Made by a program: the position numbers and the translations under genes
Shown: piece by piece, positions 1-1,948 of the stretch
Numbering within the stretch: the stretch's first letter is position 1
Layout: every line of letters starts with the position of its first letter
Notes under the pieces: model-generated
The model's input: the letters and a program-made list of their open reading frames with translations, nothing else
Databases searched by the model: none
Told to the model about the DNA's origin: nothing
NCBI GenBank assembly: GCA_034422115.1
Contig: DAOUJW010000005.1
Span: 64,292-128,291 of the forward strand
DNA length: 64,000 nt
Source of the DNA: Dehalococcoidia bacterium
GTDB taxonomy: Bacteria > Chloroflexota > Dehalococcoidia > Lucifugimonadales > UBA2985
Reading direction: 5' to 3'

Positions 1-13
1 TAATTCCACCCTT

Positions 14-154
14 TTCCCGCTCATGGTGAGGCTCTCGAACCATGGGCGGATATACCACGGTCGTTGATATTCCGCTCGCCCTTCGACAGGCTCAGGACGA
101 GCGGATAATCTCTCCCCCGCTCGTGGTGAGCCTGTCGAACCATTCGAGCGGGGC
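14..154. repeat. Cluster of three REP-like hairpin units (family A); left copy of a 141-bp direct repeat bracketing the methyltransferase-HNH gene
   Basis: Units at 17-49, 72-104 and 117-151 have the form CCGCTC[AG] / short stem / GAGCYTGTCGA (or its complement) / stem / [CT]GAGCGG. Region 14-154 aligns position-for-position with 1700-1840, with about 11 mismatches counted by eye. Confidence 0.85.
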
Positions 155-224
155 TTTCCTGCCGCAAAACAACCCGTACCTCCAAGTGGTAGAATTACGT
201 CACATTCCAACCCAGGGGAAGCAC

Positions 225-1592
225 ATGACAGAACCCAACTTCAAGAACCGCACGCTGTGGACGGGCGACAACCTGGACATCATGCGCGGCCTCAACTCCG
301 AGTCCGTAGACCTCATCTACCTGGACCCGCCCTTCAACTCCAACCGCGACTACTCCGCGCCCATTGGCTCCGAGGCGGCCGGCGCAGCCTTCAAGGACAC
401 CTGGACCCTCAACGACGTAGACCTTGCGTGGCACGGGCTGATTGCGGAGGAGCACCCGGGGCTGTACGGCATAATCGACGCCGCGGGCGTTGCCCAGGGC
501 AAGGGCATGAAGTCATACCTGATAATGATGGCCGTCCGCCTTCTGGAGATGAGGCGGATTCTGAAGCCGACCGGCTCCATCTACCTACACTGCGACCCCA
601 CGGCCAGCCACTACCTGAAGCTGACTATGGACAGCGTTTTCGGGTCGGGGAACTTCCGCAGTGAGATCACCTGGAAGCGCACCAACGCCAAGGGCCTGGC
701 CTTCAAGGGCTATCCCAACAACGCCGACATCCTGCTGTACTACAGCAAGACGGATGATTTCACCTGGAAGCGTCCTTTCCGGCCCCACGACCAGGCCTAC
801 GTGGACAAGTTCTACAAGAACATTGAGCCGGAGACGGGCAGACGCTACATGCTTGATAACTTGGTGAACCCGAACCACGACCGCCCCAACCTGACCTACG
901 AGTTCCTTGGCGTCACCAGGGTGTGGCGCTGGACCCGGGAGCGGATGCAGTCGGCCTATGACCAGGGTTTGGTAGTCCAGCAGCGTCCCGGGGCGGTGCC
1001 AAGGCTAAAGAGGTATCTGGACGAGATGCAAGGCAATCCCGTGGACACCATCTGGGACGACATCAAGCCCGTTCAGCCGCGCTCTGCGGAGCGCGTGGGC
1101 TACCCAACCCAGAAGCCTATTGCCCTGCTGGAGCGCATAATCAGCGCCTCCTCAAACCCCGGCGACGTCGTCCTGGACCCCTTCTGCGGCTGCGCCACCG
1201 CGCTGATAGCCGCGGAGAAGCTGGAGCGCCAGTGGGTAGGCATAGACCTGTCGCCGGTGGCTAGGACCCTGGTGCAGCGTCGGATGGCAAATGAGCTTGG
1301 GTTTGACAGCCTTGGGGTAATCTACCGGGAGGACGTGCCAAGGCGGACGGATGTTGAGAAGCCGCCGCCCTACCGGACGCAGAAGCACACCCTCTACGGA
1401 ATGCAGGAGGGCGTATGCGCCGGGTGCGAGGTGCTGTTCCCATTCAGGAACTTCACCGTTGACCACGTTGTGCCCAGGGCCCGGGGCGGCACAGATCACC
1501 TGGAGAACCTGCAGCTTCTCTGCAACGCCTGCAACTCCCTGAAGGGCACAAAGTCGCAGGCGGAGTTCCTGGCCGCGCTGCGGAGCAGGTAG
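225..1592 (+). CDS. DNA methyltransferase (N6-adenine/N4-cytosine type, beta-class motif order) fused to a C-terminal HNH endonuclease domain
   Basis: ORF 42..1592. The first 61 codons read through repeat units, so the ATG at 225 (MTEPNFKNRTLW) is preferred. Motif IV (DPPFNS) precedes motif I (VLDPFCGCATALIAA). The C-terminus CAGCE...VDHVVPRARGGTDHLENLQLLCNACNSLKG is an HNH signature. Confidence 0.85.
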   Translation: MTEPNFKNRTLWTGDNLDIMRGLNSESVDLIYLDPPFNSNRDYSAPIGSEAAGAAFKDTWTLNDVDLAWHGLIAEEHPGLYGIIDAAGVAQGKGMKSYLIMMAVRLLEMRRILKPTGSIYLHCDPTASHYLKLTMDSVFGSGNFRSEITWKRTNAKGLAFKGYPNNADILLYYSKTDDFTWKRPFRPHDQAYVDKFYKNIEPETGRRYMLDNLVNPNHDRPNLTYEFLGVTRVWRWTRERMQSAYDQGLVVQQRPGAVPRLKRYLDEMQGNPVDTIWDDIKPVQPRSAERVGYPTQKPIALLERIISASSNPGDVVLDPFCGCATALIAAEKLERQWVGIDLSPVARTLVQRRMANELGFDSLGVIYREDVPRRTDVEKPPPYRTQKHTLYGMQEGVCAGCEVLFPFRNFTVDHVVPRARGGTDHLENLQLLCNACNSLKGTKSQAEFLAALRSR

Positions 1593-1601
1593 GGGCGCAC
1601 C

Positions 1602-1667
1602 GTCACTCCCGAGGAGTCGGGAGTCCACTCCCCACCCCTCCTGGATGTCCGTCTGCACGGGCATGAC
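1602..1667 (+). repeat. Family B two-hairpin repeat (diverged copy)
   Basis: gtcaCTCCCGAggagTCGGGAGtccac...cccctcctggATGTCCGTctgcACGGGCATgacg. It has the same architecture as the copies at 28898, 53898 and 58328. Confidence 0.7.
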
Positions 1668-1673
1668 GAAGGC

Positions 1674-1840
1674 CCGCTCGTGGTGAGCCTGTCGCGTCCT
1701 TCCCGCTCATGGTGAGGCTCTCGAACCATGGGCGGATATACTACAGTCGTTGATAGTCCGCTCACCCTTCGACACGCTCAGGACGAGCGGACTATTACCC
1801 ACCCGCTCGTGGTGAGCCTGTCGAACCATTCGAGCGGGGC
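1674..1840. repeat. Family A repeat cluster (one partial plus three full units); 1700-1840 is the right copy of the 141-bp direct repeat
   Basis: Partial unit at 1674-1694; full units at 1703-1735, 1768-1790 and 1803-1837. It is collinear with 14-154. Confidence 0.85.
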
Positions 1841-1948
1841 ATGACAAGGGCAACGCGCCCCCTCAACACCTTGACTTGGAAGCGCACGGGATAAGATACT
1901 TAACTAAATGAAGTATTTGCTTGACCAAAGAGAGGCACTCACTGCGCC

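Follow-up and report, generated by a model that had tools for sequence, protein, structure and literature searches.

A methyltransferase-HNH fusion gene, probably a one-protein restriction-modification enzyme, at a restriction-modification hot spot of a Dehalococcoidia genome, and the hairpin repeats around it

Restriction-modification (R-M) enzymes which combine methylase and nuclease in a single polypeptide are all based on a PD-(D/E)XK nuclease in the 2014 review of Type II enzymes, where the atypical BtgZI, with an N-terminal methylase and a C-terminal nuclease, is the sole methylase-first exception (PMC4081073). R-M genes are also subject to rearrangement: long target duplication, allelic substitution and chance insertion between repeats were described by Furuta, Abe and Kobayashi in 2010 (PMC2853133). 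Here we report the analysis of a methyltransferase-HNH fusion gene, located between two direct repeats of 141 nt in the genome of a Dehalococcoidia bacterium. The window, i.e. the whole stretch of DNA analysed, is 64,000 nt long (assembly GCA_034422115.1, contig DAOUJW010000005.1, positions 64,292 to 128,291; G000:C5:64292-128291 in the notation used here) and belongs to a genome, G000, of 2.31 Mb in 26 contigs, 95% complete. It was compared with six other species of the genus (G001-G006) and with four further assemblies (L140-L143), whose loci were reached by looking up four proteins 88.6-89.9% identical to the fusion; the exact protein itself had no entry.

The fusion is probably a one-protein R-M system, inherited vertically at a chromosomal hot spot for such systems, and flanked by 141-nt repeats which are secondary sister copies of each other. 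For the protein itself, judged from its sequence, a one-protein R-M enzyme is the most likely identity. The repeats are a lineage-specific by-product of hairpin-repeat turnover and do not represent the boundaries of a mobile cassette. The features of the locus are collected in Table 1.

Table 1. Features of the fusion locus, in window coordinates.
Feature	Position	Strand	Remarks
Full-length family-A hairpin element	1..104	+	First 36 nt lie upstream of the window; left arm as far as 13, then '><' pair (17-49, 72-104)
Left 141-nt copy	14..154	+	Unit 1 (17-49), spacer, unit 2 (72-104, reverse), 12-nt linker, unit 3 (116-154)
Solo hairpin unit, probably ancestral	116..154	+	Rare compensated-stem type CCGCTCG...CGAGCGG; orthologous upstream unit in G001, G002, L141, L142, L143
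Extended -10 promoter-like motif, TGGTAGAAT	187..195	+	Predicted from the sequence; not listed by a consensus promoter scan
Purine-rich ribosome-binding stretch	213-220	+	Follows the motif at 187..195
Methyltransferase-HNH fusion gene	225..1592	+	455 aa; Pfam, PADLOC, structure matches, homolog alignment
Family B two-hairpin element	1602..1667	+	Directly after the stop codon; at least 8 other genome loci match at 84-92%; core pattern found here
Truncated solo unit	1673..1694	+	22/22 identical to 116-137; repeats the first 21-22 nt of unit 3 in the right copy (1802-1823)
Right 141-nt copy	1700..1840	+	Partial copy, without the left arm of the family
Promoter-like site, TTGACT, 18 nt, GATACT	1871..1900	+	Would serve the downstream small-ORF/DUF6159 genes; motif conserved in G001, G002

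An initial description of the locus, made from the DNA letters and referred to below as the sequence-only reading, had proposed the fusion of a beta-class methyltransferase to a C-terminal HNH nuclease. This was borne out by Pfam matches, by motif order and by the presence of intact catalytic residues in both domains. PF01555 (N6_N4_Mtase) matches residues 28-345 (E 7e-41), the HNH models PF14279 and PF01844 match residues 398-449 (E 7e-13 and 8e-12), and motif IV, DPPFNS, stands ahead of motif I, DPFCGCAT, in the order typical of the beta class. The protein is composed of an N-core (residues 1-150, with DPPFNS), a recognition domain (about 151-290), a C-core (291-360, with DPFCGCAT), a linker (361-395) and a zinc HNH (396-455), carrying the motif set CxxC...DH...N...CxxCN. 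PADLOC models for Type II and Type III methylases match at E-values between 3e-60 and 1e-35, the latter for MTase_III. In an AlphaFold model built on 30 homologs, the mean predicted local distance difference test (pLDDT) score is 78, and exceeds 85 in methylase and recognition domain. Compared with the PDB by Foldseek, the model is closest to two EcoP15I Mod chains (E 3e-19 and 2e-18); next come a Helicobacter Mod-like methylase, CcrM, M.BceJIV, M.RsrI and M.MboIIA. The HNH, of the Cas9/IscB type, can be aligned to the HNH of a Cas9 and to Gmet_0936 over the pattern CxxC...DHxxP...GG...NL...CxxCNxxKG. A longer open reading frame (ORF), beginning at position 42, was rejected, as it crosses the repeat while the homologs start at the Met encoded at 225.

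Both halves of the protein are conserved. In 30 homologs from many phyla, invariant positions include D34-P-P-F, F320 and C323-A-T in the methylase, and C398, D413-H414, N428, C433, C436 and N437 in the HNH; an FxGxxT-like motif and four Cys are thereby conserved throughout. Mean identity of the homologs to the query is 81% in the N-core, 73% in the C-core and 69% in the HNH, and only 51% (minimum 29%) in residues 151-290, corresponding to the central recognition domain. Within the genus, the ratio of nonsynonymous to synonymous substitution rates (dN/dS) lies at 0.08-0.12 for the whole gene and at 0.13-0.20 for linker plus HNH. Values this low, both for the whole gene and for that part, indicate that the two halves are maintained by selection.

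Two paralogs of the fusion (G000:C1:75253-76938 and G000:C10:6167-7798) are found in the same genome. They share the Mod-like core, at 47-49% identity to fusion residues 5-359, but the place of the HNH at the C-terminus is taken by an Mrr_cat PD-(D/E)XK domain. Close to the C10 paralog are family B repeats, phage-like structural genes and, at C10:5722-5940, a small GIY-YIG gene.

Alignment of the flanks identified the same site, between purF and a gene encoding a DUF6159 membrane protein, in all six other species of the genus, and the fusion is present there in nine genomes or assemblies. Its protein is 97% identical in G003, 89% in G001 and G002 and, as said, 88.6-89.9% in L140-L143. In G004 the cores are 91-94% identical and the recognition domain has been replaced (31%). 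The site is occupied in G006 by a HindIII-type endonuclease (PF09518, E 4e-103) together with a 326-aa N6_N4 methylase, and in G005 by a 683-aa HSDR_N_2 + N6_Mtase protein with a 511-aa specificity-like protein, in a BcgI-like layout. The purF/DUF6159 site is an R-M hot spot, and three R-M solutions plus one recognition-domain swap, at one chromosomal site of one genus, make up a clean natural experiment. The cassette proposed by the sequence-only reading is thus real in one sense, as different R-M types are exchanged at the site; the repeats neither delivered nor captured the gene.

Divergence of the gene matches that of its surroundings: identity to G003 is 94.2%, against 93-95% for the flanks, and to G001 and G002 is 85.6%, against 83-85%. 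This fits vertical inheritance since the common ancestor of the genus, which would have been followed by two replacements by other R-M systems and by one recognition-domain swap. An empty site holding one three-unit repeat cluster, which an insertion or capture of the gene would lead one to expect, was not found: the six sister species and the four assemblies all hold the fusion or another R-M system. In the sister genus, examined for an empty site by way of the DUF6159 gene, synteny with purF is lost.

If the fusion is a one-protein R-M enzyme, its recognition domain would bind a short DNA motif, and the methylase would mark the copies of that motif in the host, more likely at N6 of adenine than at N4 of cytosine. 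The tethered HNH would then nick or cut DNA bearing unmarked motifs. The main argument is indirect: since the site alternates with complete R-M systems, and the core is common to other nuclease fusions, the fusion is itself likely to be a complete R-M unit. Recognition-domain replacement in G004 also supports a self-contained R-M enzyme. The sequence-only reading had also suggested modification-dependent nicking, which is unlikely because the enzyme would write the mark itself. As it had noted, no separate restriction or specificity gene is visible; the contig was read upstream beyond the window start, and contains purH, purM and purF, all on the minus strand, followed by three small genes. 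Restriction, specificity or Res genes are missing among both upstream and downstream neighbours.

Some observations weigh against an R-M function of the fusion. Cleavage, its dependence on methylation and the motif are all predictions, the HNH part of the AlphaFold model is of low confidence (pLDDT 37-69), and no characterised methyltransferase-HNH fusion was found in the searched literature. In addition, Gmet_0936, the closest solved stand-alone HNH, shows weak nicking only, and a role in repair has been proposed for it. This last point would suit an orphan or regulatory methyltransferase, whose HNH either serves a non-restriction purpose, such as repair-type nicking or DNA binding, or is decaying. 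The gene is indeed solitary, with no restriction partner, and has been kept at one site through the genus, and relatives of the core without HNH are common in phages and plasmids. We regard this alternative as rather unlikely, in view of the catalytic and zinc residues of the HNH, invariant across phyla, and of the purifying selection acting on it. Complete R-M systems replace the gene in two species, in another its recognition domain has been swapped, the opposite of what is expected for a regulatory methylase with a fixed motif, and the paralogs place a different nuclease on the same core.

Homologs of the fusion are numerous: more than 8,000 full-length proteins share the two-domain architecture, and among the 120 matches listed identity to the query ranges from 69 to 90%. 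Species-representative genomes bearing homologs belong to Dehalococcoidia, Caldilineaceae, Binatia, Nitrospirales, Alpha- and Gammaproteobacteria; further groups are Acidobacteriota, Gemmatimonadota, Latescibacterota and Poribacteria, and the names of several homolog records indicate sponge metagenomes. Matches in isolated phages and plasmids cover only the methylase core and have no HNH, with identity not above about 50%. The phage origin suggested by the sequence-only reading could therefore hold for the methylase core at most, as the actinophage methylases, about 50% identical, have no HNH.

The wide distribution is accompanied by signs of mobility. A co-directional IS1595-type transposase gene lies 0-958 nt upstream at about 17 of 80 homolog loci, and terminal inverted repeats of 25-32 nt enclose transposase and fusion gene at four of nine loci tested. 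In several genomes two methylase-HNH copies with identical match statistics are located at distant positions (L089/L090, L121/L122, L125/L127); such pairs, beside IS1595-type transposases, are consistent with recent transposition. One may hence see in the fusion a selfish addiction or homing module, carried as IS1595 cargo, which would act by post-segregational killing or by HNH breaks promoting its copying into unmethylated alleles, defence being secondary. R-M systems are known as selfish elements (PMC2853133), and cores 60-89% identical to the query in other phyla imply recent horizontal spread. This alternative too is unlikely for the gene described here. Two IS1595-type genes exist elsewhere in G000 and neither is beside the fusion, transposases and integrases are absent from its flanks, the IS1595 terminal repeat motif has no match in the window, and inheritance within the genus is stable. 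The module would moreover rely on the same biochemistry as the one-protein R-M enzyme, differing in selective rationale and not in mechanism.

The repeats on both sides of the gene belong to the dominant hairpin family of the genome, here called A, whose unit measures about 35 nt and has a loop with an invariant core. The family has at least 290 units in G000, since the unit pattern was found 290 times there and never in the shuffled genome; the units form 88 '><' pairs, 86 solo units and a few larger clusters, and fill intergenic DNA throughout the genome independently of the fusion gene. Folding z-scores lie between -5.5 and -6.6. The left 141-nt copy, folded as single-stranded DNA, reaches -43.5 kcal/mol (z = -6.6). 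Alignment of 84 genome copies gave a family-A consensus with a left arm of about 55 nt (GGTATTCTC..TGTTGGTAATGCCAACGCC..). This arm is present in the left copy and absent from the right one, and its start coincides exactly with the end of homology to the relatives' upstream gene. G001 and G002 have only 19-20 nt at the position of the full-length element, which is therefore an insertion polymorphism.

The two 141-nt copies are collinear and align without gaps, with 130 of 141 positions identical, in agreement with the similarity of about 92% estimated in the sequence-only reading, which had also placed a family B element and a truncated family A unit between the gene and the right copy. That average conceals an uneven distribution: six of the 11 differences fall in the 12-nt linker, while the third unit is identical at 39 of 39 positions, and the copies share perfect blocks of 42 and 39 nt. 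The linker (105-116 and 1791-1802), which differs at six of 12 positions, becomes the loop when units 2 and 3 pair into a 23-bp hairpin. Compared with the left copy, about 130 pair-type copies of the genome show a median identity of 75% and a maximum of 84.6%, against 92.2% for the right copy, and the next-best match of either copy within the family does not exceed 85%. The '><>' layout, with spacings of 66 and 34, occurs in G000 only at the two flanks of the fusion, and the only exact 39-nt matches to unit 3 are the two flanking the gene.

The 141-nt form of the repeat was found in one of the nine fusion-bearing genomes. Solo units of the rare 39-nt subtype bracket the fusion in G000, G001, G002, L141 and L142; in the last four an intact unit follows the family B element at the corresponding downstream place. 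G003, G004, L140 and L143 have no bracketing family-A units: in G003 the gene is enclosed by family B elements, in G004 and L140 a single inverted unit follows it, and in L143 no unit lies downstream. In G001 (L034) and G002 (L033), a spacer of about 700 nt downstream of the fusion holds two copies, each about 200 nt, of a sequence resembling a miniature inverted-repeat transposable element (GTCATTCTGAGGAGTGCAGCGACGAAGAATCC...), among which family B elements and a single family A unit are interspersed.

These arrangements suggest how the right copy may have formed. The ancestral order would have been solo unit, promoter, gene, family B element and solo unit. In the lineage of G000 a full-length element would then have entered next to the solo unit that precedes the promoter. 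The downstream solo unit would later have been broken, and its repair would have copied leftwards from the upstream unit, through linker and pair, and rejoined the ends with a 5-nt filler, leaving a duplicated unit fragment of 21-22 nt. Accordingly, the truncated unit would represent the left half of the older solo unit downstream, the one that received the right copy. Such a history would explain why a truncated unit is present, why the left arm is missing and why the third units are identical, and break repair from the upstream cluster seems the simplest and most economical source of the right copy. Since divergence of the fusion equals that of its flanks, with dN/dS of about 0.1, the gene predates the 141-nt repeats.

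This history has its own difficulties. A simple recent copy leaves unexplained why the linker differs at 6 of 12 positions and the units at 2 of 107. Unconstrained positions of the two copies differ by 14-50%, to be compared with a synonymous divergence (dS) of 0.19 to G003 and 0.53 to G001, so that the duplication may be as old as the split between G000 and G003; the uneven differences make any such dating loose. An old duplication at the level of single units, tied to the arrival of the gene, is also possible, given the solo units of the same subtype on both sides in G001, G002, L141 and L142.

A different explanation takes the repeats as the vehicle of the gene, acquired by long target duplication, of the type described by Nobusato, Furuta and Kobayashi, or through a circle integrated at a repeat cluster, and still forming a repeat-bounded mobile cassette. 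The two copies are each other's closest relatives in a unique layout, the rare 39-nt unit stands on both sides of the gene in five genomes, and direct repeats of more than 30 bp around R-M genes have been documented as a form of insertion (PMC2853133). Moreover, some bracketing direct repeat was detected at 8 of 80 homolog loci, three of the eight being genus members, against 2 of 149 shifted controls. We judge this explanation improbable, and in its 141-nt form largely refuted. The same gene stands at the same site in relatives with other flanks, or with no flanking repeats, and has diverged in nine genomes in a vertical manner, while the 141-nt form is confined to one and four of the nine lack bracketing family-A units. 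The right copy has no left arm and is lodged within a split older unit, the sister species show substitutions and no single-copy empty site, and the repeat family is spread over the genome regardless of the fusion gene. Outside the genus, a family-A unit within 400 nt was found at none of 76 homolog loci, and a bracketing repeat of at least 100 nt at none of 80. Recombination between the repeats could nevertheless delete the fusion gene; patterns for the deletion junction and for the intact right junction had no match in a metagenome collection which lacks this strain.

One could also combine enzyme and repeats by assuming a Type III-like one-protein R-M enzyme, devoid of a motor, whose HNH breaks also drive its own placement. 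The rare-subtype solo units bracketing the gene in five genomes, and the right copy resembling a product of break repair, would then be scars of HNH cuts at hairpin repeats, and the gene, a bare cassette with no transposase, would change place and remodel its flanks. We consider this very unlikely.

Core matches of hairpin family A number 137 in G000 and 26, 25, 40, 72, 24 and 12 in G003 (the closest relative), G001, G002, G004, G005 and G006, respectively, a strong expansion in G000, and identical copies (91-nt pairs) on different contigs show that the family has been active recently. The data indicate that the burst in G000 is recent and took place without any RAYT gene: PF01797 was not found in this genome, 95% complete, while control genomes were positive. 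On these grounds a REPtron-like system could be imagined, in which the fusion protein mobilises or processes the hairpin repeats flanking it. Hairpin units flank the gene in several species, and the small genomes of the bacterial family lack both repeats and methylase homologs. Co-occurrence is imperfect, as G031 (99% complete) contains 18 units in the absence of any homolog, and homologs without units occur in six genomes. No unit was found near any homolog locus outside the genus, and the repeats described here are direct, while those of REPtrons are inverted. The link was rejected on co-occurrence and on the lack of units near those homologs, and we hold it to be extremely improbable. Better candidates for hairpin nucleases are the products of four small GIY-YIG genes of G000, which may be Ssn-type proteins; Ssn nucleases bind NTS/SRM hairpin repeats (PMC11893778).

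The surroundings of the gene are variable on the purF side. After purF, a low-GC stretch (49-53%; G000:C5:62790-64255, window -1500 to -37) contains three small genes, two of them retropepsin-like (150 and about 117 aa) and the third DUF5678-like (108 aa), and is followed by the left repeat. All three are absent from G005 and the last of them from G006, and the content of G002 is different; low-GC small genes and R-M gene form a small variable islet. The sequence TGnTAnnAT, matching the predicted extended -10 motif, lies at the same distance from the ATG in the upstream sequences inspected, those of G003, G001, G002, G004 and L140-L143. On the other side, the gene is followed by a 73-aa ORF and by genes for the DUF6159 membrane protein, a HAD hydrolase, rsmI and lepA. 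Homology to G003 resumes at position 1858, and the conserved flank is picked up again at the promoter-like site. The hydrophobic 73-aa ORF (1949-2170), lying between the right repeat and the DUF6159 gene, is found only in G000 and G003; G001 and G002 lack it and yet keep its promoter-like region. An Rfam scan detected only tRNAs, far from the fusion locus.

If the fusion acts as proposed, it would represent a compact R-M design outside the classical types, made of a Mod-like methylase and a tethered HNH, with neither a Res motor nor a separate restriction gene. The family is very abundant in uncultured bacteria of many phyla, its recognition domains can be swapped and IS1595 transposons often carry it; such enzymes might become a source of new specificities or programmable nickases. 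Pipelines which expect separate R and M genes would miss such enzymes. The locus also advises caution, as in repeat-rich genomes long direct repeats can postdate a gene and need not mark a mobile unit.

Among described systems, IS1595 elements with passenger genes resemble about one fifth of the homolog loci, some of them within shared terminal inverted repeats; the locus described here has neither the adjacent transposase nor the enclosing repeats. Family A resembles the REP/BIME sequences of enterobacteria and NTS/SRM in having hairpin units, about 35 nt long, that number in the hundreds, lie between genes and stand either solo or in pairs and clusters of alternating orientation. It differs from REP/BIME in the lack of a RAYT gene in G000 and in a longer consensus, provided with the arm of about 55 nt. 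With the rearrangements of Furuta, Abe and Kobayashi the locus shares an R-M gene between direct repeats longer than 30 bp, with no mobility gene, different R-M types at one locus and recognition-domain alleles. Lack of an empty site with a single copy, a repeat younger than the residence of the gene and the dispersed nature of the repeat family assign it to their substitution form, combined with repeat turnover, and not to long target duplication.

As to the enzyme, Type III Mod subunits, such as EcoP15I Mod and Mbo45V Mod, are structurally the closest to the fusion; they show the same beta-class order of motifs and likewise have a variable recognition domain at their centre, and the swap of this domain between conserved cores recalls mod alleles. 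The difference is that Type III systems have an adjacent res gene, encoding a superfamily 2 (SF2) helicase with a nuclease, and here no such gene is nearby and an HNH is fused instead, so that the fusion has no ATP-driven motor. Known Type IIC/IIG enzymes (MmeI, Eco57I, BcgI, BtgZI) join a PD-(D/E)XK nuclease, typically N-terminal, to a gamma-class methylase, or to an alpha-class one in BtgZI, whose methylase-first order is the only comparable one; the fusion joins a beta-class Mod-like methylase to a C-terminal zinc HNH. With them it shares the presence of both domains, with intact catalytic motifs, in one polypeptide with no separate restriction gene, exchangeable recognition domains and, presumably, the use of one recognition module by both activities.

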